Origin: Proteromonas lacertae
Taxonomy: Eukaryota
Length of the DNA: 64,000 nt
Direction of reading: 5' to 3'
Assembly (NCBI GenBank): GCA_002245135.1
Contig: NGBS01000899.1
Location: forward strand, 1-64,000
A model generated the notes under the pieces. It made no database searches, had not been told where the DNA came from, and saw only the letters and a list, made by a program, of their open reading frames with translations. Numbering within the stretch: the stretch's first letter is position 1; each line of letters begins with the position of its first letter. The translations under genes and the position numbers were made by a program. Below, piece by piece: positions 1 to 42,551 of the stretch.

Positions 1-171
1 AAAAACTCAAAATTCTTTTCAATTCTAACCAATCAAATTAAAGTATTCTATTTCAAAAATATTTTCAAACCCCATAAACAATTTTAATATAGTATGAGAA
101 TATAATTCAGAATATTGAAAGATAAAAGTTAAATGTTCAATAAATGAACAAATAACTCGCAATTTGTAAAC

Positions 172-3100: not shown

Positions 3101-6100
3101 CATTTATTATAACTATGACATTCTACACTTCCACAATCTCCACTACATACTTCTACAGGTTTACAATTACTACAGTCAACTGGTTTGTGATTTTCACATC
3201 TCTCACCATAATAATCATCATTACATTTACATTGTCTATTACTATCACATGTTCCATGAATACAAGTTTCAACTTTACAATTTCGATTTAATTCTTTAGA
3301 TACTGAACCAATGTAGGTAAATACTTGGGAACTACTTTGCAAAGTATCTAATTTTTCTTTTGTATTTTGAACTAATTGTGCTTTATCATTAACATTAATT
3401 CTCTTAATGTTAATTTTAGCTTCATTTCCATCTTGTGTTTTATTTGTTGAACCCAATTTGACCATTACTTCCTTTGGCAAACACTGTTATTGTTACTTCA
3501 CCCATTGGTAATATACCTGTGTAATTAGCTTCACTTTTAAAACCATCTTGTAAATAATAATTATTACCATCAACTGTTGCCATAAATTCATATTCTATTT
3601 CTTCAGATGATTTTGATGAAGTCTTTTGTTTCCATCCAGCGGTTTTAATAGTTACAGAAGTACCAAAATCAACTGGATTAGTAGTAGGATTAACAAATTC
3701 AATATAACCCTTAAATGGAACATCACAATCTTCAGAATGAACAGTATGAGAGACTTCTTCACTATAATCTTTATTTAATGGAGATTTTACTTTCAAACTT
3801 AAATTCATAATCACCACTTGAAGAAAACATTCCTGGAGTTAATTCAATCTTTTTATCATTCTTTATATTGGCATTTGTTATTGCTTCAATTAATGTTGGA
3901 GTTTGTTTATCATCAGAACAAGACCATTCATATTTTAAGTCTCTTTTACCATCTCCTATTGATTTACTTCCATCTAATATTATATTATCATAACAGCCTA
4001 TTGAATTTCCACCTTCAATTATTGCTCTTGTTTCAATCACTACTCCATATTTTACATTTATACAACCTTTCACATGATTCTTTTCACTTTGTAATGAGCT
4101 TTCAATAAATTGTAAGGTATTATCATATACATCTCCTTCCACACACTCAGATGACTCACTTGGCAAAATTGTTGCATCATTAGATAAGGTAATCATCATC
4201 TTCTTACTATCATTTTCACTTAAGAAACATCTTGCATTTGAACCTAAATTAGTATTCTTTAATATTGAACTACATACATCTTCTTTGGTTGTTATACCTG
4301 ATTTGATTTCTTCTTCAAATTCTACTTCGATTGCAGAAGCAGATACAAATCTTGCAGTTTTTATTGACAAATCATTAAATACTTCTTGATGGAATTGATA
4401 TTCAAATTCTTTCTTATAATAATCAACATAATATGGATTAACACCTACTATTATCTTCACTAAAATTTCTTCACTTTGAATTGAACTAGGAATTGTTACT
4501 TTCGCAAAGAAATCACCTCTATCAGTATATACATAATTCAATTCACTAATTATTTCATTATTAACACTCACATTGTAATGAACTAAGGGATAAGATATTC
4601 CTCTTATTGGAATTAAACATTCTTCACCTACTTTACAATTTACTTCTTTGGGATAGATTGTGAATTTGTATGTTGGAACTTGTGCAGATGAATAAAATAA
4701 ATCATCACTTTTCATACTCAATGAAAAGGATTCTTCACTTATACTATCTCCACTTTTATCAAATGTAATAGCATAATCTTGTTTCATGTTGTATTGGTTA
4801 AATACTTTATTGTAATTGATATCACTTGTTGTAATTCTTGATGATAAGATTGGATTTATTGTTACATCTTTACTTGGTGTAACATTTAAACTTATATAAA
4901 CTTGAGCACTATTTACTGTATTATCTACTATTGAACCAATATCAAATGAGATATTCATTCCACTTCTCATTTCTGGGATTTTACTACTTCCATCTAATTC
5001 TATGTATTTACTGAATGAACTATTAGCTAATAAACCATCACTAGTAATAAGTGGCATATTTGGTTGAACAAATATTGGAATTCTTTCATTACCAACAATT
5101 TCAGATGATAAATAGAAATTATCTTTTAATATATTGTTTATTTTTTCAATATAATCACCATCAGCTTTATTAACATATGCATTTTTGTTAGTTTCAAAAA
5201 TTCCATTACCATATATAACAACACCATTTCCCATAGTCATTGTTACTCCACCACCAACAGCTTTCATTTGTTGACTTTCAACACCATCAACATATGCATA
5301 AGAATTATAAATTGAACCAGTACCTGATGAATACATAAAGTAGCCAAAATTACCTTGATTTGATACAGCAAAATTACCGCTTGTTAGTATAATCACTCCA
5401 CTTTTATCTAATTTAAATGAATTACTAGTACTTGCACCAGTTAATCCACCAAAATTAGTTCCTGATGGAAAAGCAGTTTTGATCTTCATTTGTACAAAAC
5501 AACTGGAAATGCTTGGAGCTTGCATATATCCTACAATACCTCCAAATTTTATATTGTTTATCATAGATAATTCAGTTCTTATGTTAAATAGATTATTCTC
5601 AATTGATGTAAATGAAGAACCATATGCATTGCTATTTTCAGTTAAACCTCGTGCAAATGAATCTACATTTCCATATAGTCCACCAACATAAATATTACTT
5701 GACTTAATGATTAAACTGTTCAAATCAACATAATTGTTGTATGTTTGTCCTTCATGTAAGCCAAATATATTACCAAAATAACTTTGAGAAGTACCATCTT
5801 CCACTATTACATTATCACCTGTAACGAATAAATTCTCTGATACAGATACAATATTGTTATTAGATTGAGGATCTAAATCATAGGTAGAATGATAATATCC
5901 ACTTATAAATCCAAAATATTTCCCAGAAATCATAGACACAGTTACTGTAACAGGACTACTTTCACCCTTTAATATAACACCAACACCACGTAATTTACTA
6001 CCAGCAGCTACTTCATTTGTTAATATACCAACATTATTATTGTTATTACAAGCTAGTTTTATGCTTGAAGCAATTTGTACTGTCACATCTACAAAATCAA

Positions 6101-6503
6101 CTTTAACACCTGGATCAATAATACCACATTGTGTGAAGATAATATCTTCAGGGTTTGTTAAAAGATGATCATCTACTTCTATGCGAAAAGCAACATTGTA
6201 TAACTTAAATCCTTCAACAATACCTCCATTAAATAGTCGTAAACCCAAAGAGTATGATTGAATTATAGTATCATCAACAGTGTATTTAAGTGTAATCAAA
6301 GTATTAGTACCATTACCAATAATACCAGTTATTCCATCAAGTGCAAACTGATTCGGATTAGTCATCTCAATCTGGATAGGTTTTAAAAGCCTAGCAATTC
6401 CATCTTTCACTTCAACTGAGTCAGTAAGACCATCAAGAGAAGCAGCTCCTGCGTTTGACAAGAGTAAGAGCAGAAAACAAGTAATGAATAAGATAGATTT
6501 CAT
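172..6503 (-). CDS. Polycystin-1-like/GPS surface receptor with tetraspanin insert, copy 1 (about 10 single-base frameshifts, probably sequence errors)
   Basis: ORF fragments 172-6551 are collinear with the intact 2115-aa ORF at 8067-14414. The ATG of signal peptide MKSILFITCFLLLLLSNAGA is at 6503. Indels versus copy 2 (near 410, 1005, 1260, 1316, 1642, 2025, 2150, 2839, 3452, 3796) are all +/-1 changes, nearly all in homopolymer runs. Confidence 0.85.
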
Positions 6504-6591
6504 TCTAGAATATTCTAAAAATGAATTATCGTTTTTTATATTTATTTGCATTATTGATTGAAAATATTGATATGTGTTTCTTTCAGATATA

Positions 6592-7586
6592 TATGTATAA
6601 TGCCATTTGGACCTCCATCCTTGATATTTACTGTTGTATTGATTTTATTAATAATCGAATCAATCTTTACTTTTATCAGTGTAAATTCTTTCAAGAAAAC
6701 TCCATTTATTTACTTATTTGTTTGTGACTTAATACTATTTGTATTATGTCTGGTATGTTTTATTTACAGTATATTAGTAACATTTGATAATAATGGAAGT
6801 ATTCATTCTTTATGGAAATCTTTGACGAAATCAGTAGGAACAAAAGAATTAATAATTTATATCGAAGATAATCTCGAATGTTGTGGTTATAAAAGTGTAG
6901 ATGATTATAATGTTCGAAATTGTTTTGATAATGATTATTTAGCTGTAGGAATTGATCCAATAAGTTGTTCTTCAAAATTATCTGATGCATTTAAGAAATA
7001 TAATTACATTTGGATAATCTATTTTATTGTCGGAATATTATGTTTATTAGAAAAGATGTCTTTAGAAATGTCTTACATTTGTTTCAATTTCAATAAAGTA
7101 TTAAATAATCAAGATAATACTGATTTTGAAAATGCTGAGATAAAAGAAGCTGGAAATAAAATCTTGAATTTATTCCGAATTCGAGTAACAAAGAATAAGA
7201 TTCAAAGAAAGAAAGAATATGTTGAATGGTTAAGACAAAGAAGAATGAGAACAACGATAACAATCTGTGTAAACAGTGTAGTATTCATTTACATCGTGTT
7301 TATGGTGTATATCAACTTATTATATGGAGTAAAATTTGCATCTCAACAAGCTAACAGTTGGATAATATCTTCTGCAATTTCAATGGCAATCGATGTATGT
7401 ATTCAACAACCAGCCTTGATTTTATTGAACTCTGTAGCTGCTTCAACTATGGGTGCGATAGTAAACTTCGCTTCATAAGTTTACAAATTGCGAGTTATTT
7501 GTTCATTTATTGAACATTTAACTTTTATCTTTCAATATTCTGAATTATATTCTCATACTATATTAAAATTGTTTGTTTTAAGGGTT
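6592..7586 (+). repeat. Inverted duplication of the receptor 3' end and 3' UTR; carries ORF 6600-7478 (292 aa from an in-frame ATG)
   Basis: Reverse complement of 7959-8953, with one mismatch seen near the end. Also matches ~76-1056 of copy 1. The protein is identical to the receptor C-terminus from MPFGPPS to VNFAS. Confidence 0.92.
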
Positions 7587-8066
7587 AGTTTTATTTTTAA
7601 CATTTCTATGTTATGAATCAAAATACACACTACTTTTAATCATACTTAATTATCAAAATTTATTTCAACTAGTTAAACAAGAAATACTAGTTGTACTATC
7701 AGACTTAGGTAAAATGTACTTTCAAAAAATATCTTAATTTTATACAATTAATTATCAATTGTCATAAATTTCTCTTTATAATCATTATAAATATTTTGAA
7801 TTATATCAAGCAATATTTTGATGAATAGCTCTTGTTTAAAAGATACTGAAAAACTTAGGTGTAAAAATTATAACAACTGAATCTTATAATTAAATAAGTA
7901 AGATCAACTGTACTAAGTATTATGACATGAATTTATATTGCTTAACTGTTGTTAAATAAACCCTTAAAAAAAACAATTTTAATATAGTATGAGAATATAA
8001 TTCAGAATATTGAAAGATAAAAGTTAAATGTTCAATAAATGAACAAATAACTCGCAATTTGTAAAC

Positions 8067-11000
8067 TTATGAAGCGAAGTTTACTATCGCACCCATAGTT
8101 GAAGCAGCTACAGAGTTCAATAAAATCAAGGCTGGTTGTTGAATACATACATCGATTGCCATTGAAATTGCAGAAGATATTATCCAACTGTTAGCTTGTT
8201 GAGATGCAAATTTTACTCCATATAATAAGTTGATATACACCATAAACACGATGTAAATGAATACTACACTGTTTACACAGATTGTTATCGTTGTTCTCAT
8301 TCTTCTTTGTCTTAACCATTCAACATATTCTTTCTTTCTTTGAATCTTATTCTTTGTTACTCGAATTCGGAATAAATTCAAGATTTTATTTCCAGCTTCT
8401 TTTATCTCAGCATTTTCAAAATCAGTATTATCTTGATTATTTAATACTTTATTGAAATTGAAACAAATGTAAGACATTTCTAAAGACATCTTTTCTAATA
8501 AACATAATATTCCGACAATAAAATAGATTATCCAAATGTAATTATATTTCTTAAATGCATCAGATAATTTTGAAGAACAACTTATTGGATCAATTCCTAC
8601 AGCTAAATAATCATTATCAAAACAATTTCGAACATTATAATCATCTACACTTTTATAACCACAACATTCGAGATTATCTTCGATATAAATTATTAATTCT
8701 TTTGTTCCTACTGATTTCGTCAAAGATTTCCATAAAGAATGAATACTTCCATTATTATCAAATGTTACTAATATACTGTAAATAAAACATACCAGACATA
8801 ATACAAATAGTATTAAGTCACAAACAAATAAGTAAATAAATGGAGTTTTCTTGAAAGAATTTACACTGATAAAAGTAAAGATTGATTCGATTATTAATAA
8901 AATCAATACAACAGTAAATATCAAGGATGGAGGTCCAAATGGCATTATACATAATACACAGATGTAGAATATTAAACTGAAGAAGAATAATACAAAACAT
9001 CCACCTAATAAACCTATCTTCATTCGAGTTAAGGTTGGATTACTTACATTATTATGTAATATATAATCTAATCTCTTCTTCAAGAAACTCAAATTATACC
9101 ATTTGCCTTTACCTTTTATTGTCTTTGATGTACAACCATTCGCATATTTATATAACCAAGGAATTATTAAAGTACAAGGTAACATACATAATGTAGAGAT
9201 TATTGAAGTTGAGATTAATTGAGCTACATTCTCAGCATCACTAGAGAAGAATAAGGCATTCACTGCGGTGGATGTCATTAATTGACATGTTAAACATAAG
9301 ATTCGTTGACTTCGAGTTATTACTACTATTCCATTTACTGGCTTTAATGTTGGAGATAACCAACTATGTTCAGCTTTTAAATCTAACCAGAATCGAACTA
9401 AGAAATTTACTTTCTCTTCTTCAATATTCTTCTTCAATGTATTTTCAGCTACTTTCTCATCCAATACACCTACATTCAAGAATTGATCAGCTTTCCTTTC
9501 TTTTATTATAGATTTTTCTTTATTATCTCGATATTTGGTATAACTCCAAGATAAAGCACATAACAATAATACACAACCTAAGATGATTGGAACAATCATA
9601 TTACTAGAATCATAATTTCCTAATAACTTCGCATCACTTATTGGATTTACTATATTCATTTTTGGAATGATTTTATTATTTCGAATTGTAAAATCACTTA
9701 AATGAATTGCACCACAGGTTACAATTGTCACACTGGAAGTTCTTTCGATATTATATACATAAACACCTTTACTACTCAATTTCTTCGTTTCAGGATCATA
9801 ATAGGTACATTCCACATCTTTTAATGCAACATCATTCGATACTCGTTGAGTAAAGTATATTGGATCATTTAAATTTTCAACTTCTTCATTTTTACCATCT
9901 TCTTTTATTATTGAAATTGTTAAAGTTCCACTCGTTATATTTTCATTTTCCATTTCTTTTATTGCATTATCTTTCCATTCTACTATCTCGATTGACGATT
10001 TATCTTCTATTTCGCCAGATAATAGTCGTTTATTTGTATTATAATTACTCAAATCAACAGAACCACTTGAAGTATTTATCACACCATCTTTATTCTTATT
10101 GCATTTTAATAATTTTATATCAAATATATCATTCTCCATTTTAATTTCTTCCTCTTGCTCATTTCCTTTTACATTCTTGGAATAACTCTTGGAGATTTCA
10201 TCTACTAAATTCTTTGCTTCACTTGTCACACTTTTATCTTCATCAACTAAGATTCTTCTTTTATTAAACATTTCTTCTTTCTTTTCAAATCGAACCATCG
10301 AGGATATACTCTTCAAATAGGATGATAAACTATCGATTCTTACTGATGATGATGATGATGATAAAGATTTTATTGATGAATTTACTAATTTTAATGATTT
10401 CTTCACTATTTCTTCATCTAACATTGATTCATTTTCTAATAAACTTTCAATCACAAATGATTTTTGTTCGTGAGAATTTGAACTTTCACTTGCTGTTTCA
10501 GTATAATTCATAAATTGATTGTTTAATTTTATTACATTTTCACTATCTGTTTCATTACTAAATTCACAATTTGAACCATAATAACCAGATAGACATTCAC
10601 ATTTTGTATAACAGTTCAAATCATATTCTTTACATTTAGTATCAGTCTTTTTACAGTCACCATGATCACTACATGCTTTACCATGTCGATTACCATCATT
10701 GTCAAGATATTCACCTGGACATAATTTTGATGGAGCTTCACAAGTTTTATAACAATCAACTATTTCAAACCATTCACCATCACATTTTTTACCATTCTCA
10801 CATTTTCTAGATCGAATCATTTTACCTTTAACTTCTAAACCATTGAAGTTTATACATTCAGCACTACATTCTGATTCTATCCATTTACTCCATTCACCTT
10901 TTACATTTCCTTCATTTGAACATTCTTTTAATGTTTTGGTGTATGTTTGAGGATTATATTCACATTCTTTTCCTCCATATTGAGGCATTGTTTCACATTT

Positions 11001-14000
11001 ATTATAACTATGACATTCTACACTTCCACAATCTCCACTACATACTTCTACAGGTTTACAATTACTACAGTCAACTGGTTTGTGATTTTCACATCTCTCA
11101 CCATAATAATCATCATTACATTTACATTGTCTATTACTATCACATGTTCCATGAATACAAGTTTCAACTTTACAATTTCGATTTAATTCTTTAGATACTG
11201 AACCAATGTAGGTAAATACTTGGGAACTACTTTGCAAAGTATCTAATTTTTCTTTTGTATTTTGAACTAATTGTGCTTTATCATTAACATTAATTCTCTT
11301 AATGTTAATTTTAGCTTCATTTCCATCTTGTGTTTTATTTGTTGAACCAATTTGACCATTACTTCCTTTGGCAAACACTGTTATTGTTACTTCACCCATT
11401 GGTAATATACCTGTGTAATTAGCTTCACTTTTAAAACCATCTTGTAAATAATAATTATTACCATCAACTGTTGCCATAAATTCATATTCTATTTCTTCAG
11501 ATGATTTTGATGAAGTCTTTTGTTTCCATCCAGCGGTTTTAATAGTTACAGAAGTACCAAAATCAACTGGATTAGTAGTAGGATTAACAAATTCAATATA
11601 ACCCTTAAATGGAACATCACAATCTTCAGAATGAACAGTATGAGAGACTTCTTCACTATAATCTTTATTTAATGGAGATTTTACTTTCAACTTAAATTCA
11701 TAATCACCACTTGAAGAAAACATTCCTGGAGTTAATTCAATCTTTTTATCATTCTTTATATTGGCATTTGTTATTGCTTCAATTAATGTTGGAGTTTGTT
11801 TATCATCAGAACAAGACCATTCATATTTTAAGTCTCTTTTACCATCTCCTATTGATTTACTTCCATCTAATATTATATTATCATAACAGCCTATTGAATT
11901 TCCACCTTCAATTATTGCTCTTGTTTCAATCACTACTCCATATTTTACATTTATACAACCTTTCACATGATTCTTTTCACTTTGTAATGAGCTTTCAATA
12001 AATTGTAAGGTATTATCATATACATCTCCTTCCACACACTCAGATGACTCACTTGGCAAAATTGTTGCATCATTAGATAAGGTAATCATCATCTTCTTAC
12101 TATCATTTTCACTTAAGAAACATCTTGCATTTGAACCTAAATTAGTATTCTTTAATATTGAACTACATACATCTTCTTTGGTTGTTATACCTGATTTGAT
12201 TTCTTCTTCAAATTCTACTTCGATTGCAGAAGCAGATACAAATCTTGCAGTTTTTATTGACAAATCATTAAATACTTCTTGATGGAATTGATATTCAAAT
12301 TCTTTCTTATAATAATCAACATAATATGGATTAACACCTACTATTATCTTCACTAAAATTTCTTCACTTTGAATTGAACTAGGAATTGTTACTTTCGCAA
12401 AGAAATCACCTCTATCAGTATATACATAATTCAATTCACTAATTATTTCATTATTAACACTCACATTGTAATGAACTAAGGGATAAGATATTCCTCTTAT
12501 TGGAATTAAACATTCTTCACCTACTTTACAATTTACTTCTTTGGGATAGATTGTGAATTTGTATGTTGGAACTTGTGCAGATGAATAAAATAAATCATCA
12601 CTTTTCATACTCAATGAAAAGGATTCTTCATTTATACTATCTCCACTTTTATCAAATGTAATAGCATAATCTTGTTTCATGTTGTATTGGTTAAATACTT
12701 TATTGTAATTGATATCACTTGTTGTAATTCTTGATGATAAGATTGGATTTATTGTTACATCTTTACTTGGTGTAACATTTAAACTTATATAAACTTGAGC
12801 ACTATTTACTGTATTATCTACTATTGAACCAATATCAAATGAGATATTCATTCCACTTCTCATTTCTGGGATTTTACTACTTCCATCTAATTCTATGTAT
12901 TTACTGAATGAACTATTAGCTAATAAACCATCACTAGTAATAAGTGGTATATTTGGTTGAACAAATATTGGAATTCTTTCATTACCAACAATTTCAGATG
13001 ATAAATAGAAATTATCTTTTAATGTATCAGTGATGCTTTGAATATCAGTTTTATCCTTATGTGTAAATTTATCATTTGTATCAATTCCGTTACCATAAGT
13101 AACAACATTACTATTAGCTTGTACAGATATTCCACTACCAACAGCTTTCATTTGTTGACTTTCAACACCATCAACATATGCATAAGAATCATAATAATAG
13201 CCAATACCTGATGTTGCTGTATGAAAATAAGCAACATTACCATTTGATGGTAAAGCAAAACTACCACTTGTTAGTATAATCACTGAAACGAAATGTAATT
13301 TAATCATACCAGAAGCACTACCCATCAATCCACCAAAATTAGTTCCTGATGGAAAAGCAGTTTTAATCTTCATTTGTATAAAACATTTGTAGAAAACAGC
13401 ACCATTAAATAATCCTGCAATACCTCCAAATTTTTCATCTGTTCCTTCAATTTTCAACTCATTTCTTAAATTGAATAAACTATTCTCAACATTTATTATA
13501 GAAGAAGTAACATCATCATTATAATTAGATAAACCAGAGGCTACAGCATCCACATTTCCATATAGTCCACCAACATAAGCACCACTAGTTTTGATGTAAA
13601 AATTGTCTAAATCAACATAATTATTATATGTCTTTCCTTTATGTAAACCAAATATATTACCAAAATAACTTTGAGAAGTACCATCTTCCACTATTACTTT
13701 ATCACCTGTAACGAATAAATTCTCTGATAAATCTGGATTAGTACAAATACCTTGTTGAATATTACAATCATATATACCACTTATAAATCCAAAATAATTT
13801 GTTAAACTCATTGAAACAGTTACTGTAACAGGACCATTGTCACCCCTGATAATTACACCAACACCACGTAATTTACTACCAGCAGCTAAGTAATTGGTTA
13901 ATAAACCAACACGACTATCACTGTGACTACATGTTAACTTTATGCTTGAAGAAATTTGCACTGTAACATCTACAAAATCAACTTTAACACCTGTATCAAC

Positions 14001-14381
14001 AATACCACATTCTGTAAAAACTATTGCAGTATTTTTAGTACTACGCTGATCATCTACTTCTACACGAAAAGCAACGTTGTATAACTTAAAACCATCAGGA
14101 ATAGCATTGAAAAGAGTCAAACTAAGATCATTAGGTGTTGGATCACCATCCTTCACTGTATACTTAAGAGTAATCAGAGTATTAGTACCATTACCAATAA
14201 TAGCACTGTATGAAGCAAGTTCGATCGGACTTTGAGTGGTCATCTCAATCTGGATAGGTTTTAAAAGCCTAGCAATTCCATCTTTCACTTCAACTGAGTC
14301 AGCAAGATCGGCAAGTGAAGCAGCTCCTGCGTTTGACAAGAGTAAGAGCAGAAAACAAGTAATGAATAAGATAGATTTCAT
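8067..14381 (-). CDS. Polycystin-1-like/GPS surface receptor with tetraspanin insert, copy 2 (intact, intronless, ~2104 aa)
   Basis: Signal peptide; GLUG-like GGLxG repeats; REJ-like ILDGSKSIGDG..LKYEWSC; EGF (CIHGTCD..CKCNDDYYGERC); TSP1 (WSKW..CSAEC..RSRKC); GPS (CTYYD..CGAIHLSDF); PKD1-type HSWLS..TRSQRILCL..NALFF and LYGVKF..WIISSAIS..IQQP; tetraspanin LECCGY. Confidence 0.85.
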   Translation of the reverse strand: MKSILFITCFLLLLLSNAGAASLADLADSVEVKDGIARLLKPIQIEMTTQSPIELASYSAIIGNGTNTLITLKYTVKDGDPTPNDLSLTLFNAIPDGFKLYNVAFRVEVDDQRSTKNTAIVFTECGIVDTGVKVDFVDVTVQISSSIKLTCSHSDSRVGLLTNYLAAGSKLRGVGVIIRGDNGPVTVTVSMSLTNYFGFISGIYDCNIQQGICTNPDLSENLFVTGDKVIVEDGTSQSYFGNIFGLHKGKTYNNYVDLDNFYIKTSGAYVGGLYGNVDAVASGLSNYNDDVTSSIINVENSLFNLRNELKIEGTDEKFGGIAGLFNGAVFYKCFIQMKIKTAFPSGTNFGGLMGSASGMIKLHFVSVIILTSGSFALPSNGNVAYFHTATSGIGYYYDSYAYVDGVESQQMKAVGSGISVQANSNVVTYGNGIDTNDKFTHKDKTDIQSITDTLKDNFYLSSEIVGNERIPIFVQPNIPLITSDGLLANSSFSKYIELDGSSKIPEMRSGMNISFDIGSIVDNTVNSAQVYISLNVTPSKDVTINPILSSRITTSDINYNKVFNQYNMKQDYAITFDKSGDSINEESFSLSMKSDDLFYSSAQVPTYKFTIYPKEVNCKVGEECLIPIRGISYPLVHYNVSVNNEIISELNYVYTDRGDFFAKVTIPSSIQSEEILVKIIVGVNPYYVDYYKKEFEYQFHQEVFNDLSIKTARFVSASAIEVEFEEEIKSGITTKEDVCSSILKNTNLGSNARCFLSENDSKKMMITLSNDATILPSESSECVEGDVYDNTLQFIESSLQSEKNHVKGCINVKYGVVIETRAIIEGGNSIGCYDNIILDGSKSIGDGKRDLKYEWSCSDDKQTPTLIEAITNANIKNDKKIELTPGMFSSSGDYEFKLKVKSPLNKDYSEEVSHTVHSEDCDVPFKGYIEFVNPTTNPVDFGTSVTIKTAGWKQKTSSKSSEEIEYEFMATVDGNNYYLQDGFKSEANYTGILPMGEVTITVFAKGSNGQIGSTNKTQDGNEAKINIKRINVNDKAQLVQNTKEKLDTLQSSSQVFTYIGSVSKELNRNCKVETCIHGTCDSNRQCKCNDDYYGERCENHKPVDCSNCKPVEVCSGDCGSVECHSYNKCETMPQYGGKECEYNPQTYTKTLKECSNEGNVKGEWSKWIESECSAECINFNGLEVKGKMIRSRKCENGKKCDGEWFEIVDCYKTCEAPSKLCPGEYLDNDGNRHGKACSDHGDCKKTDTKCKEYDLNCYTKCECLSGYYGSNCEFSNETDSENVIKLNNQFMNYTETASESSNSHEQKSFVIESLLENESMLDEEIVKKSLKLVNSSIKSLSSSSSSVRIDSLSSYLKSISSMVRFEKKEEMFNKRRILVDEDKSVTSEAKNLVDEISKSYSKNVKGNEQEEEIKMENDIFDIKLLKCNKNKDGVINTSSGSVDLSNYNTNKRLLSGEIEDKSSIEIVEWKDNAIKEMENENITSGTLTISIIKEDGKNEEVENLNDPIYFTQRVSNDVALKDVECTYYDPETKKLSSKGVYVYNIERTSSVTIVTCGAIHLSDFTIRNNKIIPKMNIVNPISDAKLLGNYDSSNMIVPIILGCVLLLCALSWSYTKYRDNKEKSIIKERKADQFLNVGVLDEKVAENTLKKNIEEEKVNFLVRFWLDLKAEHSWLSPTLKPVNGIVVITRSQRILCLTCQLMTSTAVNALFFSSDAENVAQLISTSIISTLCMLPCTLIIPWLYKYANGCTSKTIKGKGKWYNLSFLKKRLDYILHNNVSNPTLTRMKIGLLGGCFVLFFFSLIFYICVLCIMPFGPPSLIFTVVLILLIIESIFTFISVNSFKKTPFIYLFVCDLILFVLCLVCFIYSILVTFDNNGSIHSLWKSLTKSVGTKELIIYIEDNLECCGYKSVDDYNVRNCFDNDYLAVGIDPISCSSKLSDAFKKYNYIWIIYFIVGILCLLEKMSLEMSYICFNFNKVLNNQDNTDFENAEIKEAGNKILNLFRIRVTKNKIQRKKEYVEWLRQRRMRTTITICVNSVVFIYIVFMVYINLLYGVKFASQQANSWIISSAISMAIDVCIQQPALILLNSVAASTMGAIVNFAS

Positions 14382-14565
14382 TCTAGAATATTCGTTATTT
14401 TCGGTTATTCTCATCTCAATTTTTAATTAACCTTTTCATTAGAATAACGAGTGCATTAATTATAATTATGATGAAAGAATTATTTCTAGTAAGAATTATT
14501 TCCGAAGAACAGTATGTTTATAATGATTTATTTTCTATTTCATATAACTAAAATATCAATATATA

Positions 14566-24174: not shown

Positions 24175-24247
24175 CGCCCAAGAGGGGACTTGAACCCCCA
24201 ATCTCCCGCTCCGGAGGCGGACGCCTTATCCATTAGGCCACATGAGC
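24175..24247 (-). tRNA. tRNA-Arg (anticodon CCG)
   Basis: Reverse complement GCTCATGTGGCCTAATGGATAAGGCGTCCGCCT-CCG-GAGCGGGAGATTGGGGGTTCAAGTCCCCTCTTGGGCG folds as a cloverleaf with A and B boxes. Confidence 0.95.
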
Positions 24248-25291: not shown

Positions 25292-27397
25292 TTATTCTGC
25301 ATTTTCTTCATTTATTAGAATTTTGACATAATCACTCCTATTATAGTTTTCATAGAAATAATCATTATATTCTCGTGTAATACATTTCACTGGTAAAACA
25401 GCTCTTTTGCAAAATGTTGATTGATATTCTATTTCTATTAATGAACATTTATCACTAACATTATATTTTCGAACTACGGGATATTCATAATTGAAGATAT
25501 TATCTAGTTTCTTTTCAACTTTTGAATAGAATTTCAACAAAATAGCTGGATTTATATGAAAGATATAATCATATACTAAATAATCATCAATAACACAAGA
25601 ACATATACCATTCACACACAACTCATTGGTTACATTTATTATGTGATAATTTGGTATGGCAAACATTGGAGGAAAGTTTACAAATGTTGAGTTTATTCCA
25701 ATTATTGTATAACATTTTGTTTTTCTATTGATTATACATTCTGAACACATACAATTGACATTATTCTTTCTTGAAACTGGATGATTGGCAAATGAGATTA
25801 TAATATCACTCTTTCTACTACATAAATATAACAATTCTTTATATCTGTCAACAAATGAATCATATTCATTTTCAATGATATATTGGTAAGCACTAAATAT
25901 GGGAATAATTATATGATAATATGATTTAATCTCTATATAGCTTGATTTAAATAGCTTTCGGAAATAATAATAGATATAAGTTAATGTCAAGTTTCTAACA
26001 TATGCATATTTTCTTAATATCCATAACCACTGAGTAGCATATGAATCACCTATCACTAAAATTGATCTCTTTGGATTATAATTACTTGGATATGTTTGGC
26101 AACAATCACACACAATATCTCCAAAGTAATTAAATAAAACTTCTGGATTATTAATGTTTATTTTTGAATAATCAATAGGTTTATCAAAAGTGTGTAAATA
26201 TAATGGAATTACTCTATCAATATAACCATCTGGTTTAGATATTATTGTCGATATATATTCAGACATATTATTATCAGAAGAATCTAAAAATGTTGGATTA
26301 TAATTCAATAATTTATCATGATAATAGTCATAATTTATGTAACATATATAACTATTAAGAAACGGAATTAATACCAACAACATATTCATGAAAAGCATTT
26401 GGTATTCTGACATTCTCAGCTTTTGAATTCTTTTGTCATATATTTCATAAAACAAAATACTTAAAGTAAATATTATAATAATCTTTATATATTTATTATT
26501 TGTTGGCAATAATTCTATTAAAGGATAATGAATTAGATATATTAAATAAGAACATTTTCCTATATATTTAATTATTCTATTACTCAGTAATATATTCTTC
26601 ATTTCTTTATGACTAATAATCAACAAACAGATAATAATCATAAACAACAACATAATTTGATCTGTGATTACTTTATTAAACGTTAAGAAACTATTAACAA
26701 AATGGAAAAGAAATGGTGAAATAATAAATAGTATACACAACACTATTTCATTAAATGAGTTTTTAAACTTTGTTAATTTTAATAATCCACCACTATTTAA
26801 TTCAAACATACGATAAAACAAAGAATAATATACACTTATGTCATTATAAATAAACATAATTCTTAAACCATAAGCAAATGATATTATTATCATCACAATC
26901 ATCAAATATATTGACATTTTATTAACTATATACAATAAAAATGGATATATTAAGTAATATTGAAACTCTACTGATAGAGACCAATAATTCATTATTGAGC
27001 TTGGATGTAAATCACTAAAATAATCTTGTTTTATACTTATAAAATACTGATTTGATAAGAATAAAGAACTATAATAAATATCATAGAATATAACTGGATT
27101 TGTATTATTCTGGTGCATTTTATATATCAAATAAACATACAATACAACACAAGAACACGGCATTATCCGTTTCAATCGCTTGTTAATAAATCTAAAATAT
27201 GTTGCACTAAAGGATTCTTCTTTGCTCATTTCTAAAGATTGTGTAATAAAATATCCAGATATTAGAAAGAAAATATCAACTCCCATATAGCCATAATCAA
27301 AATATTTGAAATGAAGATGAAACATTAAGACTAATATTACAGCATATCCTCTTAATCCATCAATATGATCAACATAGTCGGTAGTTTTATTTTTCAT
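25292..27397 (-). CDS. OafA-like acyltransferase-3 plus SGNH domain O-acetyltransferase (intronless)
   Basis: IDGLRGYAV..FH, GYMGVDIFFLISGY, RLKRIMP, WSLSVEFQYY, GKCSYLIYLIHYP; C-terminal GDSYA and DYIFH (approximate DxxH). Confidence 0.9.
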   Translation of the reverse strand: MKNKTTDYVDHIDGLRGYAVILVLMFHLHFKYFDYGYMGVDIFFLISGYFITQSLEMSKEESFSATYFRFINKRLKRIMPCSCVVLYVYLIYKMHQNNTNPVIFYDIYYSSLFLSNQYFISIKQDYFSDLHPSSIMNYWSLSVEFQYYLIYPFLLYIVNKMSIYLMIVMIIISFAYGLRIMFIYNDISVYYSLFYRMFELNSGGLLKLTKFKNSFNEIVLCILFIISPFLFHFVNSFLTFNKVITDQIMLLFMIIICLLIISHKEMKNILLSNRIIKYIGKCSYLIYLIHYPLIELLPTNNKYIKIIIIFTLSILFYEIYDKRIQKLRMSEYQMLFMNMLLVLIPFLNSYICYINYDYYHDKLLNYNPTFLDSSDNNMSEYISTIISKPDGYIDRVIPLYLHTFDKPIDYSKININNPEVLFNYFGDIVCDCCQTYPSNYNPKRSILVIGDSYATQWLWILRKYAYVRNLTLTYIYYYFRKLFKSSYIEIKSYYHIIIPIFSAYQYIIENEYDSFVDRYKELLYLCSRKSDIIISFANHPVSRKNNVNCMCSECIINRKTKCYTIIGINSTFVNFPPMFAIPNYHIINVTNELCVNGICSCVIDDYLVYDYIFHINPAILLKFYSKVEKKLDNIFNYEYPVVRKYNVSDKCSLIEIEYQSTFCKRAVLPVKCITREYNDYFYENYNRSDYVKILINEENAE

Positions 27398-27531
27398 GAT
27401 GCATAGATGCTTCAAAAAACAAGAAATAAAAATTATGAAACGAATATAATTTTTGTACTAATTTCTTTTCTTTTAACCACAAATAACAATCACATTTATT
27501 AACTTTATTTAAATGAGATAAATATATACTA

Positions 27532-28799
27532 TTAACTATTATTATATACAAATTTTTCTTTTGAGCGTAAATTGAATTTATCTTCATAACATTCTAGAGA
27601 AATAACAGATGATTTAATGACTAACAAATCTTTTTCATTGGTGGAACATATTGAAGTATCATTTTCTTTCACTTCTTCTGGAACTAATGGAGATTGTAGA
27701 AACACTTTTATCAATTAAATAAACATAATTAAATATTGAAAAATGATATATTTTCTCTATATCCATCTTCTTCATACACTGATTCAAAGTCATTTATATT
27801 AAAAATATGCAAAAAAGTGCGAAATACATATTTATTATCTTCATAAACAATGAATCTAGGTAATATAATTGTTCTATTCAATATCTTTCCCATATAAGCT
27901 AAAAATGTAATTGCATCTACTGGATTCACTTCCTTTACATTTAGTGAATATTTATATCTTATATATTTTCGTGTTTTGGATGAATAATATTCATTATCAT
28001 CAATTTTCCATAATCCCAATTCTTTAAATCGATATTTTTTAGCTATTCCTCCTTCTATACAATTATTGTGAAATCCGATTGTTTTACAATTTGTTACATC
28101 ATCCACAAAGTGTTTAAAATATCGAAAATAAAAAAATCCAATAGCAAATGTCAATAGACTAAATACTCCATATTTTAAATTATTTATTCTTTTCGCTGAG
28201 ATAATTAAATTAGTTATTCCTTGATCCATAAAATCAAAATCTCTTTGCCCGATTTTAGTTATCTCTAAAACTCTCTCAAACAGCCTTATTGATGCTTTTG
28301 TTGGTTTTATATACATTAATCCACAATTTAATTCTGTATGATTTCCTTCTATAAAATCAGTAGCATATGTAATATCATTCTTTGGATCTATATGATTTAA
28401 TAAATTTAAAGGATTTTCAAAGAAATATAAATCAGAATCAAAACATAGTATAGTTAAATTTTGCCTTAGATATTCCAGTAATATTTTGAATCTGTCATTT
28501 ATCTTTTTAGTATATTGCTCTGTGTATTGAAACGTTGATGCTACATTGTCATTCATCTCAATAGGAGAGTATTCTACAGGAATTCCATATTTTTCATACA
28601 CCGCATATGAAGATGGATTCCAAACTACCATTTTAAAATTTGGAACATTATATTTCAGTATTACTTCCTTATAAAAGTTTCTAACAAAATCTATTACATT
28701 GTAATCACCTACAATCACTATTTTATCAGGAATTGGTACATTATAGCAATTAACATTTATCCTGATAAAAAATATAATAATAAAGATATGATAAGACAT
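27532..28799 (-). CDS. Nucleotide-diphospho-sugar transferase (GT77-like) with signal anchor; one non-canonical intron at 27706-27749
   Basis: FDSD (DxD)..NP, LNCGLMYIKPT, MDQ..N, HNNC..KKYRFKELGLW; last exon VFLQSPLVP..NNS*. Confidence 0.8.
27706..27749 (-). other. Putative U12-type intron, 44 nt, AT-AA termini
   Basis: ATATCATTTT...TATTTAATTGATAAAA. Removal joins YREN to VFLQSPLVP in frame, and no local GT-AG pair restores the frame. Confidence 0.65.
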
Positions 28800-28910
28800 G
28801 ATAATTTAAATTTTAAAGAAATGGGTTTGAAAATTTGGCAAAATAATAATTTAAAAGTGAATTTTAGGTTCATATACATCATTATAGCGATAAATTCATA
28901 TCATAATAGA

Positions 28911-33600: not shown

Positions 33601-35305
33601 ATGGATCAAACATATTTAATTCGTGCAGTTGGAGAAGGTAATCCCCAACGTCAAGTATAATCCCTTTTCTTAACCTTTAGATATTCTTTCGTTTTGGTAA
33701 CTGGTGCTATCAAGGTCCAATTAACTTGGGCTTTACTCATGCACTTACTCTAAGCGATTTACGTTTGATGATGCCAATATTACAAAGACAGCAAGGATCA
33801 TTAAAGCCAGTTTGCGAGTATAATTGCAAAATTATCCATCCTATTATAGATTTGGATCATGTAAAAGAGACAGTAAGCCCATTGCAGCAATTGATACATT
33901 GAATGAGATTTGCTCCGATTTAGAAAAGACTATCATGTCTCTTGACGAGAAGGTAGAAAAAATAATTGCCCAATCAGGAGCTAACGATGACGAAGTTACA
34001 ACATTCTTCCGTCTTGACTTAACTGATTCATTCCCATTTGATCAATTTAATGATTATGAAATTGTAATTTCTAAGACATATTGTAAGCATATTGTTATGC
34101 ATACAATATTAATGGATAAACTATTATATGTAGCATTAAGCGATGGAACAGGTCAACAACAGTTATTGAATACTCAATTCCCTAACCTTAAATCAGTGCA
34201 TGAAGTGTATGAAGTGGAGACATTTGGAGGAGGTTCTATGTTTAAGAAAATATCGTTATGTTTCGGTGGAAATACAGAGAATGAAGAAGCTAAGGAAGAA
34301 ATAAGTGTTGGATTTAATGATGAAAGAGATGAAAATTGTATGTTTTATATATATTTATATTTTATTATGTTTTATATATAGTGAAGGCTGATTTTCAGAA
34401 GGAAGGATATAACCAGACATATTTCATATTGAATCCACCACCAACTTCAGTAATTACTGTAATTAGAGAGGTATTTTTCAGATTTGGTAATTGGTGTTAT
34501 CATGGTGCAATTAATGTAGGTTTCCCACAATTAAAAGAAAGTACAATTCCTGGATTATTACCATTATTACATAAACAACAAAGTAATTTACATTCTACAT
34601 GTCAATATGACAAATTACCACCAGAATCAAAATTCAAGCCATTATTACATACATTTGAGAAAGCTGCTAGATTTATTGAAGTAGCCTTAGAAACAGCTGA
34701 TGAGAAGTTATTGAAAGTAGCTGGTGACGATAAATGGGTAGATGACGATTGGGAAGATGCCTTCTTTCAGTTTGAAACTACTGAGCATCATTACCCAGGT
34801 GTAGACTGTGTAATTAATAAATCATACTCTAAAGGAATATTGTTACATATTTTATATATTCAAAATAGTTATTTTGCTGTATTAACTCAAGCTGCTGATA
34901 ATATCCATTGTTAGATACTTTATTCCCTGATATTTCAAAGAGATTACAATGTCAACATAATTATATTGTATGTTTATTGGTATTTTATATTTTATTTAGC
35001 TTGAGACATTTGCACCAGAAACAGGATTTAAAAACTTCCAATTATGGATAGGAGGACAAAAGAAAGAAGCTCCATCTTCAGCTAAAGAAGTAGCCACATC
35101 TAAACCAACTGTAGTTACAAAGAGTGAATCAAAATCGGAAGGAAAAGAAGAATCAAAAGATGGAGGTTATAATAAAGCTGTAAGTCCAACTAGACCATGG
35201 GTAAAAACACCAATGCGTATTGAGCCTTTAGAAGGAGCACCAAAACCATCTGGTGCAGCTGCTGGAGAAGAAAACATATTTAGAAAAAAGAATATTTTCA
35301 AGTAA
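33601..35305 (+). CDS. Hypothetical protein with an internally duplicated domain
   Basis: QTYLI..IFFRFGNWCYQGPINLGF near the N-terminus recurs as QTYFI..VFFRFGNWCYHGAINVGF; exons joined by short introns. Confidence 0.7.
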
Positions 35306-35907: not shown

Positions 35908-37675
35908 ATGGGAAAGAGGGGTAGAAGTCCAGATAGCGATGATGAAAAAAATCATAAACGACACCGTTCACACAGAGACTCATCTAGAAGAAGTCGTTCA
36001 AGATCACATTCTCATTCTCGAAGACACAGAAGTCGTTCACATTCCCATTCACATAATAGACGTAGTAGTAAATTGAATACACCTAAATCTGAAGCATCAG
36101 CTCCAGTTACACCAAGAAATGATTCTGTAAACTTAGTATTAGAGTCAAAAAGTGGTAAAAAGACTTACTTACCAGCACCATTAGTTTTAGATGATGAAGG
36201 TAATGAAGTCGATGTAAATGGGAATATAATCAAAAATAAGACTTTTAAATCAGTAGCAACATTAAAAATCAATCAAAAATCTGTAACGAAAATGACCAAT
36301 CCATATACACAGCCAATAAAAGATAAAGAAATAGCTCCAGCTGTAATTGACAAAAGAATCCATACAAAATCAAGAATTAGTCGTAAAGACAGAGCTCTTA
36401 AGTTCAGAGAAGAGGGAAGTTTCGTTAAAAAAGCAGAATCTATAAGAGCAAGAGAAGAACGTATAAGAATAGCAGAATTACAGAAACAAGTGGAGATGGA
36501 ACATGATGCTGAATTAGCCAATAATAATGATGCAGTGGATATAATTAGAAGTAATGATGATGATATACCAAGTATATAATATATATAATAATAATAATAT
36601 TTTTGAATTTTTATCTCATTTTTTTCTTCAATATTTTTATCTGTATAGATATGGAATGGTGGGATGGTGACTTCTTACCTGATGGTAAACGTGAAGATTT
36701 CAAACATGCAAATACCTTCGATAAAGATTCATACGAATATTCACAACTGTTAGCATCAAATTGTACATCAATAGAATGGGTACAACATCCAGCACAAGTT
36801 CAACCAGCTTTACCAGAGTCAAAACCCAAGCCAATACCATTAATATACACAAAGAAAGAGAGAAAGAAACTGAGAAGAAAAGAAAGAATGGAAAAACACA
36901 AGGAAGAACAGGATTTGATAAGAGTAGGGATAGTAGAAGCTCCAGAACCAAAATTAACACGTTCTAATATGATGCAATTATATAAAGATGAAGCAGTAGC
37001 AAATCCAACAATAATAGAACAGAAAATGCAAGAGCAAGTCGCCAAAAGATTAGCCAATCATCAGAAGAGAAATGAGGATAGGAAATTAACACCACAACAA
37101 AAGAAGATTAAAAAATTAAAGAAATTGATAGGTGATAAAACAGAACAACAATATATAGCAGTATTTAAGGTAGAAGATTTATCTAATAAACGAATTAGGT
37201 TTAAAGTGGATGTAAATGCCCAGCAGAATTATTTAACCGGTCAAATAATGTTATGTCCAAGTATAAGATGTAATATGGTATTAGTTGAAGGAACAAAAAA
37301 ATCAATCGATCGATATACAAAGTTAATGATAAGAAGGATTAATTGGAATTTGGAAGAAGATGAAATAGAAAAGATTGAAAGAAAGATGATAATAAAGAGG
37401 ATAATAAAATGGAAGAAGAAGAAGAAGAAGATGGAAATGAAATTGAAAAGAAAGAGAAAAAAATAGAGGAAAAAAAGGTTGAAATAACTAAAGAAGAAAA
37501 GTTAGAGAATCATTGTTATTTGGTTTGGAGAGGTATTGCTGGTAAACAGTCAATAAAAGATTTTGTAATTGACACATGTTCTAGTTATGCTTCTGGTAGA
37601 GAGAAATTAGAAATGAAAGGATTAGCTCAATATTGGGATATGGTTAAGAATTATACAGATGATACAATTGCTTAG
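35908..37675 (+). CDS. PRPF3: U4/U6 snRNP protein Prp3
   Basis: MEWWD, VQHP, YTKKERKKLRR, RFKVDVNAQQNYLTG, CYLVWRG, YWD; RS-rich N-terminus; one intron and one apparent 1-nt error near 37380. Confidence 0.93.
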
Positions 37676-37773
37676 TGATTTATTTATTATTTTTTTTCCA
37701 GTTTTTACTGTTGAATTATGTTTTTAATTCCCACAAATTTCAAATAGTTTTGAATTAATAAATAATTAACATT

Positions 37774-38177
37774 CTATATATCTTTAGGACCTTCACCAGG
37801 TACAAGCTAGAAATAGTAAGTAATAAATAGCAATACCATGCAAACTTGACTTCCATTAAGCAGAATACTCTTTTGTCTAACAACTTGCTTTCCAGTAGGA
37901 GTGTAATTTCTAAATATTATATTTTCATTTCATACATCTCAGTAACATCATCAAGCACCATATTTTTATCAATTAAGGCAACAATAATATCATAAATACT
38001 GTTATTAATAAAAAAGGATATTGACATAATCATCAAAACCTCTTAAAGTTCCTGTAATTTCTTTATCACCTTTCATTATGATCCATATTTTAGAACCAAT
38101 GCATTTATCAATTAATTCTAGACAATAGAAATAAAAGAGAATATACCTAATGGTAAAATAGGGTTTGATTCAGACAT
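37774..38177 (-). CDS. LSM5: U6 snRNA-associated Sm-like protein LSm5; absent from the ORF track
   Basis: Spliced [57 protein letters not shown]; four introns, the second of U12 type. Confidence 0.95.
37964..38021 (-). other. U12-type (minor) intron, 58 nt, AT-AA termini
   Basis: 5' site ATATCCTTT, branch site TGCCTTAAT, 3' end TGATAAAA. Removal restores DDYV-N-MVL. Confidence 0.85.
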
Positions 38178-38417
38178 AATTTAGTAAAATTGAAATTAGA
38201 ATTATCAAACTTCAACTCAAGCTTTTTGAGAAAAACACACCATCAATTGCTATATTGATATTATTATTCGTTTAAATGCATTGCTATAAACAGAGAGAAG
38301 CGGATTTTAGTTTTATAGAATGATGAAGAGCAGTACATTTAACAAAAACTCTTGTAATCAACCCCTAAGCAATATAAAATAGTCGGACATAATAATAACT
38401 CAAAAATTCAAGTATAT

Positions 38418-38768
38418 TTACATCTGACCAGTCTGGACATTTCTTACAATTGAAATAATAGCTAATTAAATATATTAAAATAAAATCTATACCAGATCCA
38501 ATAACTGCAATCAAAAACACTGCTAAAACAATAGGGCCTACTTGTGAATCTTTTTCTTTCTAATATATTAGTATAAAAATAGTATACTTTGGATGATGTA
38601 CTGACATTTCCTCTTTTTGTGATATTCTCGTTATATTTTGCTGCTTCTCTTCTTTGTTTCATGGGGAGATTAGACTATTAAAATGGAGTATAGCATAGAG
38701 GATTAAAAATATTTATATTGCAAATATAAATGCAAATAAGCTGATATATATACTGTACGACGTTCCAT
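38418..38768 (-). CDS. SERP1: RAMP4/SERP1 stress-associated ER protein
   Basis: KYNENITKRGNV..VGPIVLAVFLIAVIGSAIISIVR; three introns. Confidence 0.88.
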
Positions 38769-38814
38769 TGCCTTACTAGTAGATATAAACAAAAAATTAA
38801 GAAATGAAAATTCT

Positions 38815-38828
38815 TGTCAAGCTTGACA
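38815..38828. promoter_or_regulatory. Palindromic promoter element TGTCAAGCTTGACA
   Basis: Perfect 14-bp palindrome between divergent SERP1 and Kish; variants occur at 17486, 20387, 35851, 38217 and 59674. Confidence 0.55.
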
Positions 38829-38877
38829 TATATTGACCAAGCTTTTTACTAATTACATTTTTTCTTTTTAATTGAAA

Positions 38878-39118
38878 ATGGTATATCTAGTATTTTATTC
38901 AATAGGCTGTATTATTCAATTTTGGAAGTTTGATAGAATGCTTGTTGCTATTCATTTGTGCATGTACTTATGCGAAATTTAGAGCTCCACAGTTATTAGA
39001 TAGACATAAAACTGGATTTTCAGGTATATTTTGGAAAGCTGCAAGAATAGGTGAAAGAAAGAGCGAATATGTTGCTGCAATGCTAGTTATTGTTACTATT
39101 TATAAACTGTTTTATTAA
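38878..39118 (+). CDS. TMEM167: Protein Kish (TMEM167)
   Basis: ATG, 25-nt intron, then AVLFNFGSL..LLLFICACTY..GIFWKAARIGERKSEYVA. Confidence 0.93.
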
Positions 39119-39207
39119 ATGTATTTATTTATGTAGTATTTATTATGATTTTCAAATATAAGCATAACAAAAACAAAATTTATCAGTACATAATAATAAA
39201 TTGTGTT

Positions 39208-42200
39208 TTATAATTCCGACATATTTTCTTCTTGTTGTTTCAACTCTATTAACATTTCAGGATCAAAGAATTTAACAGCACTAACATCTTCAGCCAATCC
39301 TTTACGACGTCTAGTCTTAATCATAAATTCACGACATAAGTGTTGTACAGGTGCAGGTTCCATTTGATGTAATATAATAGATGTATCTAATGGATCACCT
39401 TCCACTAATTGCCAATGATCAAATGTCTATATATATTAATATAATATTATTATAAATACATGTTGACAAAAAGCTAAACCTTGAGTATGAACTCTTAAAT
39501 CAACTTCAAAACCAAATGATTCAATCACAGGTATATATGCATACAATACAAAGAAAGGAGTACCAGGCTTAGGTCTTTCCTATATACAATATAATAATAA
39601 TAATAATAATAATAATATATATATATACAGATGAAACTAGACCTCTTCTTAAAGCCAACACCTCTTGAACAGGTTTAACTAAATCAGCTGGACAAATAAT
39701 CTCAATATAATTAACAGGTTCCATTAATCGAGGAGATGCTAATAATACTGAACTATAAACTACACGTCTTGCAGTTGGTATTATTTGACCAGCACCTCTT
39801 TGTATATTGTCTGTTGAAATTATTGCATCAGTTAATTTGAATTTAACACCTCTGATTGGTTCATCACAAAGTGGTCCTTCTTTACAAGCCCAACGGAATC
39901 CTTGTATAATGTGATCTTTCACTGTATATAGTATATTCTTATTCACTTCATCGGAGAGAGTATCATCTAATAGTATATTTGGTGAATTATCAGTTGGACC
40001 AAATGCCCATATCGATCTTGATGCTAATAAATCCCAATTATATTTATCCTTCATATAATCACTTAATTGTTTCTTTGGCATATTTAAACTAATTATTTTA
40101 TTCTCAATATCTAAATCTAACTTCTCATCAATTGGTTCAGCAATCATTGTTAATTTATTAGCTTTATTGGGAGTAGTTGCAAAACATTTTAATGTAGAAA
40201 TATCTATTACCGTTTCACAGAATGACACTACAGGATCAGCAACTTTAACTTCTAAATCACCAAATAATACTCGTAAATCATGTAGTACACAATCTAATTG
40301 TAATTCTCCAGTTCCAAATATAACATGTTCACCTGATTCTTCCACCTTTTGTTTGATTAATGGATAACATTTACATACACATCTTAAACCATTCTCCATC
40401 TTTGGTACTTCGGATGGTTTTAGTGCTTCTACTGATACTTTGATTGAAGATAATGTTGTGAATGATAAAGTATTGAAGATTTCAACATCTTTCGTTTTAA
40501 TATCACATATTGTAGCTGTTGAAAAAATAGTATCACTTACTCCTTCGATTAATATCCAATTACCTGCTGATAAATGATCTACATCTATCTTGTATCTACC
40601 TTCAGCTATTGCTATTGATGTTATTTCTTTAGTTGTCATATCTTCTGGATCATCTAATGAATAACTATTAATATAATAAAATATATTAATAAAAACTTAA
40701 AAAAAAAGAAAAAGTAATTTCAATAATATAACAGTAAAGAAATCAAAAAATAAAGTAAATAAATAAAATAACATATAATAATACTCTTCTCCTAGAATAT
40801 TGACTTTTTCTGCTTGATGTATAGTTCCACTCATTATTCTACCAAATGCTAAGAAATCTTTACTATCTGGAGTTGGGTATAACTTAGTAATATGTATCAT
40901 TAAAGGACCATTAGCATCACATTTCCTCATCGATTCTGCTATTTCTGTTGATTGATTTCCTTTATATATTCTCAGTATTTTATCTTCTGCTGCTTGTACT
41001 GGTGATTTTGTATGTTGTAATAATGAATCTACTATACACGTTAAACCATTCACAAAATATTTTCTCATTATAAATCTTAATAGTGGTTTAACGTTTTTAT
41101 GAAGTTCACTTTTTTTGAATTTTATTCCTAATGTTTTAAGTGTACTACCTAAAGATTTTGAATCTTCACCTACTGCTTGAGTATATATTTTATATCTATA
41201 TAATAATATATAAATATATACATTGGCTCTAGACAAAATTGTACAAACGATCTATATCCTTTATCTTTAATTTCTTTAGCAGTAAATTTCCTTGTAGTAT
41301 TATCATAATAATAATTACCCCAAAGATATTTCACAAATGAATCTACATTCAATTGATTATTATGATATATTTCGCTATATTGTTGAGCATATGATAATAA
41401 TGAAAAACACCATCTATGTTGTGATGATGCAAATAATACATTACCTAAAATTGGATTTAATTTTACATGTCTTTTACTATTATCTCCTGTTGGAAATTGT
41501 GTAACTGTTATATTTACTTCTTCAATAATTTGATGAAGTTTGTGGTAGACATCTGCTGGTGGTAATTTTAATTCTAATATTAATCGATCCATTTTATTTA
41601 TTACTAATATTAATGATAAACCTTCACGTAATGCTTCATTTATATACTATATAATAATAATTATTATTATTTATATAATACTCTATTTGTAGTCATATTT
41701 ACACCTTCTACAGCATCTACCACTATAAATGCACAATCTGCTAGTCTAATAGCAGCTGTAATTTCACCTGAAAAATCAACATGACCTGGTGTATCAATGA
41801 TATTCAATAAATAACTTTTACCTCTGCTACTTTGTAATATTATGGAGACAGGAGTGCTACCAATACTAATGCCACGTTCTTGTTCATCTTTACGAGTATC
41901 AGTGTAACGAGTCTATTTTTGGAATATAAAATAATTTGATTCTATACATCAACATCATCACTCCATTGAACAACATGTGTACTTTCAATTAACATATCTA
42001 AAAATGTGGTTTTACCATGATGTATTGAACCCAATACTACTACATTACGCATTAGATCAGGTTTATCCATTAGTGATGTCAAAAATTCATTTGTATACTA
42101 TACATTATTATATAATTAAATGTAATTCATACTACAGTAGTTGGTATTTCCTTTTCAAGAACTGAAAACACTTTAGCCTTGATTGGATTAATTATTGGTA

Positions 42201-42551
42201 CAGTAATATCTTGCTCATCTTCTGGATTTACTTCAATTTCCACACCAGGATAAATCTATGCAAATAATGCATTAATTATACATCTTCAGCATCTGGATAA
42301 TATTGTTTATCTTCATGGAGCACAATTGCGGTTTGTTGATTTGAAACTACTTCCTGTTCATCCTCTTCTACAACATATTAATTTAAAAAATACCTTCCAT
42401 TTCATTGCCATTATTTTCTTCCTCTTCTTCTTCGCTTTCCTTCTATTACAAAAAATAAGTGTTTATAGGTTAATACTTCTGAATCATCTGAAGAACTCTC
42501 TAAGTTACCTCCAATGTAATTACCAAATTCATCATATTGATCCTCATCCAT
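39208..42551 (-). CDS. EFTUD2: U5 snRNP 116 kDa GTPase Snu114
   Basis: [72 protein letters not shown]. Confidence 0.96.

Follow-up and report, generated by a model that had tools for sequence, protein, structure and literature searches.

A probable AT-AA minor intron at a conserved site in the LSM5 gene of Proteromonas lacertae

A short gene on the reverse strand of a 64,000-nucleotide stretch of Proteromonas lacertae DNA (GCA_002245135.1, contig NGBS01000899.1, positions 1 to 64,000; this whole stretch is referred to here as the window) appears to be interrupted by an intron that starts with AT and ends with AA. This raises the question of whether an intron with such ends can be real and, if so, which spliceosome would remove it. 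The gene (38177–37774, -) comprises five exons and four introns, and its translation after removal of the introns is an ORF of 86 aa (Table 1). Exon 2 matched the LSM domain of Pfam (9e-09), and all seven of its matches in the PDB were LSm5. These matches agree with the preliminary description, made from the letters alone, which had named the gene LSM5; as judged from exon 2, it is indeed LSM5, an Sm fold whose nearest relative is LSm5. Removal of positions 37964–38021 together with three GT-AG introns (29, 26 and 30 nt) opened the frame and yielded the conserved residues DDYVNMVL, and retention of those 58 bases stopped the translated frame after 54 codons. PRP3, LSM5 and SNU114 are three spliceosome genes located within 6.7 kb (35908–42551), an arrangement that is possibly due to chance.

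Table 1. Coordinates of the LSM5 gene and of the signals of its second intron (positions of the window)
Feature	Positions	Strand	Evidence or remark
LSM5 exon 1	38147..38177	-	ATG at 38177
LSM5 intron 1, 29 nt, GT-AG, major type	38118..38146	-	spliced ORF
LSM5 exon 2, last base is the first of the Asn codon in DDYVN	38022..38117	-	Pfam LSM, PDB LSm5
LSM5 intron 2, phase 1, 58 nt, with signals of the U12 type and, in the assembly, AT-AA ends	37964..38021	-	
U12-type 5' splice site ATATCCTTT of intron 2	38013..38021	-	sequence
U12-type branch-site motif GCCTTAAT of intron 2	37972..37979	-	sequence
Five-A run over the 3' junction of intron 2, four A intronic and one exonic	37963..37967	-	sequence
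LSM5 exon 3, 28 nt	37936..37963	-	spliced ORF, comparison with metagenome LSM5
LSM5 intron 3, 26 nt, GT-AG	37910..37935	-	spliced ORF
LSM5 exon 4	37837..37909	-	spliced ORF
LSM5 intron 4, 30 nt, GT-AG	37807..37836	-	spliced ORF
LSM5 exon 5, TAG stop	37774..37806	-	spliced ORF

The second intron (38021–37964, -) starts with ATATCCTTT, carries GCCTTAAT and ends with TGATAAAA. A U12-type intron is recognized by RTATCCTT at position +1 and by a CCTTRAY-type branch site near the 3' end, and both were found, the former as ATATCCTTT (38021–38013) and the latter as GCCTTAAT (37979–37972), as the preliminary description had claimed. The candidate branch A is located at 37974 or 37973, that is, 10 or 9 nt from the 3' end. 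The AA end with DDYVNMVL restored, also part of that description, was likewise confirmed in the assembly: when 38021 is taken as the 5' site, the frame-keeping 3' ends listed include no AC or AG such as the canonical subtypes (AT-AC, GT-AG) require, and the AC and AG dinucleotides nearest behind 38021 would give introns of 21, 23, 80 and 84 nt, every one of them out of frame. Furthermore, no GT-AG or GC-AG pair of the major type leaves an open frame across the intron 2 region, and only the removal of 58 nt restored DDYVNMVL. Two open AT..AC pairs (38058–38001 and 38005–37942) were rejected, since each would take out conserved residues and neither starts with a U12 5' site, and recursive or nested splicing via the inner AG/GTAT at 37999 was discarded because of the stop codon upstream.

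The same mRNA can be obtained from six registers (starts at 38022–38017) and the same protein from seven, none of them canonical; since six registers yield a single mRNA, cDNA would reveal where the exons are joined without telling which bases end the intron. A real cut in another register (e.g. AT-AT, 38019–37962), or one made by the major spliceosome, would consequently be indistinguishable by cDNA, but we consider this alternative highly improbable. Only 38021 places the U12 5' site ATATCCTTT at +1, and the orthologous introns listed from metagenomes, described below, begin exactly there. Moreover, 104 of the 108 major introns modelled in the window start with GTAT, 103 end with TAG and all end with AG, although the gene model was trained on introns of this GTAT/AG type; the inner GTAT at 37999, in turn, sits past an in-frame stop. 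Base composition also points to the two U12 signals. They hold four of the five C residues of intron 2, in a background where the modelled major introns contain 4.4% C and two CC runs occur in 1 of the 108, and this concentration suggests that the signals are under selection.

The motifs by themselves are no better than chance. RTATCCTTT was seen four times in the window (about 27% GC) against 3.17 expected, CCTTAA 16 times against 35 expected, and their joint occurrence, observed once, was equalled in 26 of 200 simulations. The evidence lies in their position at a conserved intron site. Elsewhere in the window, GTATCCTTT was rejected as the start of a minor intron at 15257, inside coding sequence and without a branch motif, and at 41254 and 43840, on the non-coding strand.

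The conservation of the site was revealed by a scan of metagenome sequences for GFDxY/FV codons followed by RTATCC, a pattern that matched at least 119 loci; among the matches listed, at least 57 were LSM5, and the other 62, unrelated, were left out. The LSM5 loci are pre-selected for RTATCC and some duplicate others, the matches listed having 17 distinct peptides for exon 2, and because the pattern itself demanded U12 sites, the set shows conservation and not frequency. The LSM5 loci, at least 57, carry a U12-type 5' site at the same codon, 53 starting with GT and four with AT, and in the matches listed the intron starts exactly where that of the window does. Among these matches, 24 introns were complete, of which 22 were GT-AG and two AT-AG, none ending with AA, and all 24 were followed by a 28-nt exon and then GT, as in the window; lengths of the LSM5 introns listed ranged from 63 to 1828 nt. 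The gene, the codon, the phase and the 28-nt next exon are therefore shared with the intron of the window, which differs in being AT-AA. Judging from these loci, the LSM5 minor intron tolerates changes of its ends. The two AT-AG introns (loci L034 and L040; 508 and 537 nt) belong to an LSM5 of animal-like type, in which the following exon encodes NIVLEDV.

Protein relatives gave a compatible picture. Among the best 150 of 1130 relatives of LSM5, the residues directly past the intron site were NMV in 111, NIV in 11 and SIL in 12; SIL corresponds to read-through of GTATCC, and NIL, the product of reading through the intron of the window, was absent from these 150. Two reports (PMC12956336, PMC8850803) count mouse Lsm5, the same gene, among those with a minor intron, in passages that leave the position of the intron unstated. 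The literature searched yielded no LSM5 intron with an AA end; minor-intron databases and supplements may hold one. Its two defining signals, together with its orthologous position, thus class intron 2 as U12-type, and it is very probable that a U12-type intron is real at this conserved LSM5 site, most likely with AT-AA ends, and that the minor spliceosome removes it. GT-AG and AT-AG would then be joined by a third type of ends in this old minor intron of LSM5.

The preliminary description had presented AT-AA ends as a rarity; though uncommon, they are on record, and the surprise is not supported. According to the part of Larue and Roy (2023; PMC10639083) that was available, AT-AA is the commonest non-canonical class among animal and plant minor introns, with 823 AT-AA against 16,044 AT-AC introns in animals and 690 against 5,903 in plants, and it accounts for 1.1% of the conserved minor introns of animals and 3.0% of those of plants. 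Eight AT-AA introns had been tabulated earlier, along with switches of ends between human and mouse such as AT-AA/AT-AC in MSH3 (Sheth et al. 2006; PMC1557818, in excerpt). The introns of this subtype, as described in both sources, combine a U12 5' site, a branch site and an AA end, as in LSM5, whose intron would be one more beside over 1,500 catalogued; unlike them, it lies in this AT-rich lineage, ends inside an A run, has A at -3 and is read from an assembly. In the literature searched, nothing specific was found on AU-AA ends in relation to branch-site distance, or on minor splicing in Proteromonas. In practice, gene finders will break LSM5 at an AT-AA intron.

The length of 58 nt, which had been called very short for a minor intron, proved to be long for this genome: the modelled major introns of the window have a median of 32 nt (n = 108), and five of the 108 reach 58 nt. 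The minor introns of Blastocystis, with a median of 39 nt (PMC10639083, in part), are shorter than 58 nt as well. For Blastocystis ST1, 346 U12 introns are reported (Gentekaki et al. 2017; PMC5608401), and in supplement file 32 of that work 180 of the 336 ATATCC rows, counted by eye, comprised 118 introns ending with AC, 52 with AG, seven with AA and three with AT. In the rows covered, short ATATCC introns thus occur beside major introns of about 30 nt, a situation similar to that of the window. The seven AT-AA introns measure 38–43 nt and end 6–7 nt past the branch A, whereas the LSM5 intron measures 58 nt and ends 9–10 nt past it, a spacing that lies within the range of the ST1 ATATCC introns in those rows. 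Six of the seven end with CAA, having C at -3 where the LSM5 intron has A. The genomes also differ in composition, with 55% GC in ST1 and about 27% in the window; in the parts of Lind et al. available (PMC12129017, PMC10690189), Proteromonas lacertae has 27% GC, as in the window, and Blastocystis from tortoise 21–23%. The words 'minor' and 'U12' are absent from the text of PMC12129017 that was searched. Judged by architecture, a gut protist of the Blastocystis/Proteromonas type would be a guess, and a SHIPPO-repeat gene of the window hints at a flagellate. For the SNU114 of the window, relatives were found at 91% and 73% and named ones at no more than 60%, and in a quick tree of 36 rows the SNU114 of the window and the 91% and 73% relatives share one long branch that has no named sister.

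Because the ends are read from an assembly, the reality of the terminal A was considered separately. In one DNA run, with a share of 0.05, no read was placed on 37520–38560, which counts neither for nor against it. The intron could belong to the ordinary minor kind, AT-AC or AT-AG, its final base having been lost, or miscalled as A, in the A run by a long-read assembly, and an added base would bring the spacing from the branch site to 10–11 nt, closer to the known optimum. Errors of the kind do seem to occur in the window. A duplicated copy at 76–4800 differs from its intact twin by ten single-base indels, all in run length, and by three substitutions; at 408–411 an isolated base has merged into a run, which is the type of error that a miscall in LSM5 requires. 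We take these indels for long-read errors, decay of the duplicate being possible as well. In addition, 584 nt from the LSM5 site, the Prp3_C domain of PRP3 is spread over two frames with no intron, the frame change near 37380 (+) separating profile positions 1–68 from 67–138, most likely because the assembly is one base short in a run of A.

The rates at which such errors occur speak against this explanation, however. Beyond position 14,400, a simple gene model covering 38,726 coding bases called ten frameshifts, which by eye comprised three model artefacts, five apparently real frameshifts and two uncertain ones; the likely frameshifts amount to about 5–7 in those modelled coding bases, or 1–2 in 10,000 per base. 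Substitutions number three per 4.7 kb even in the worst region, and SNU114, 1.2–4.5 kb away, has ten GT-AG introns and no frameshift. By comparison, AA ends make up about 4–10% of minor introns starting with AT in animals, plants and Blastocystis, as far as the sources above extend, and by our own rough estimate a real A is favoured by at least 40 to 1. Even if the number of A in the run at the junction were wrong, furthermore, the end would still be AA. A lost or miscalled base is thus very unlikely as the origin of the terminal A. Single-base frame changes, probably assembly errors, were also noted at 19791, 21598 and 45081 (+) and at 30570 (-), in a SHIPPO-repeat gene, a kinesin, a coiled-coil gene and a syntaxin-like gene; calls at 15412 and 27697 (-) are doubtful.

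The AA end might instead be damaging, in a copy of LSM5 that is decaying or poorly spliced and for which a second copy elsewhere compensates. Non-canonical ends frequently splice worse (PMC3584512, in part), and further duplicated DNA is present in the window, but the five exons of LSM5 are open and conserved, the rest of its introns, three in number, have canonical ends, and the two U12 signals have been retained despite the C-poor background, so that decay appears most improbable. The duplicated DNA includes a gene for a 2119-aa PKD/EGF-like membrane protein, found across 76–6515, 6588–7586 and 7971–14393. One of its copies is intact, another is near-identical but frameshifted and has diverged towards its N-terminus, and between the two lies a partial copy of 1 kb in inverted orientation; the copies reflect either duplication or mis-assembly.

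An AT-AA intron at the LSM5 site would fit what is known of minor splicing. As stated in the portion of PMC3584512 available, a U12 intron owes its identity to the 5' site and the branch site, without a pyrimidine tract, and such introns take non-canonical ends, often with less efficient splicing; the choice of the 3' site depends on the distance from the branch site, with an optimum of 11–13 nt, and is made with errors. The 9–10 nt of the LSM5 intron lie slightly below that optimum. We propose that U11 and U12 would pair with ATATCCTTT and GCCTTAAT, and that the minor spliceosome likely removes the 58-base insert at its AT and AA ends, the second-step cut falling 9–10 nt past the branch A within the five-A run. 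The 3' end would then likely be set by the distance from the branch point, as the preliminary description had supposed, with no canonical AC or AG to mark it. The A end probably drifted from AC or AG in an AT-rich genome. The A run offers several adjacent AA ends, of which a single one preserves the frame, and this would imply either an exact ruler or the discarding of mis-spliced products, both being candidate readings; a slip of one base at this acceptor puts a core splicing gene out of frame.

A second candidate minor intron was detected on the forward strand at 34901, where the frame of a gene changes exactly at ATATCCATT, followed by a CCCTGA branch-like motif. Removal of 38 nt (34901–34938), with a CAA end 8 nt past the branch A, restores the frame, as do a 44-nt intron with an AT end and a 47-nt intron with an AC end 17 nt past the branch A (to 34947). 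Six of the seven C residues of the candidate lie at signal positions, and no homologue of the protein that carries it was found. The locus may be a second minor intron, possibly ending with AA; a one-base assembly error would also explain the frame change. If the intron is real, it speaks for a functional minor spliceosome; should its end be AA, such ends are perhaps common. Both minor-intron candidates of the window are compatible with a ruler of 8–9 nt, LSM5 ending with AA at 9 nt and the second candidate (34901–34938) with CAA at 8 nt. That minor introns of this AT-rich lineage have come to use AA as a main 3' end, chosen by a near-pure branch-point ruler of 8–9 nt exact to one base even within a run of A, is nevertheless a rather unlikely extension. 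Should AA ends be common in the lineage, the A-run acceptor would offer a natural test of the precision with which the branch-point distance is measured.

Two further features of the window were recorded. At 25292–28805 (-), an Acyltransferase-3/SGNH gene adjoins one for a nucleotide-diphospho-sugar transferase; both families are common in bacteria, and the genes are possible lateral transfers. A tRNA gene at 24175–24247 (-) is the sole Rfam match in the window.
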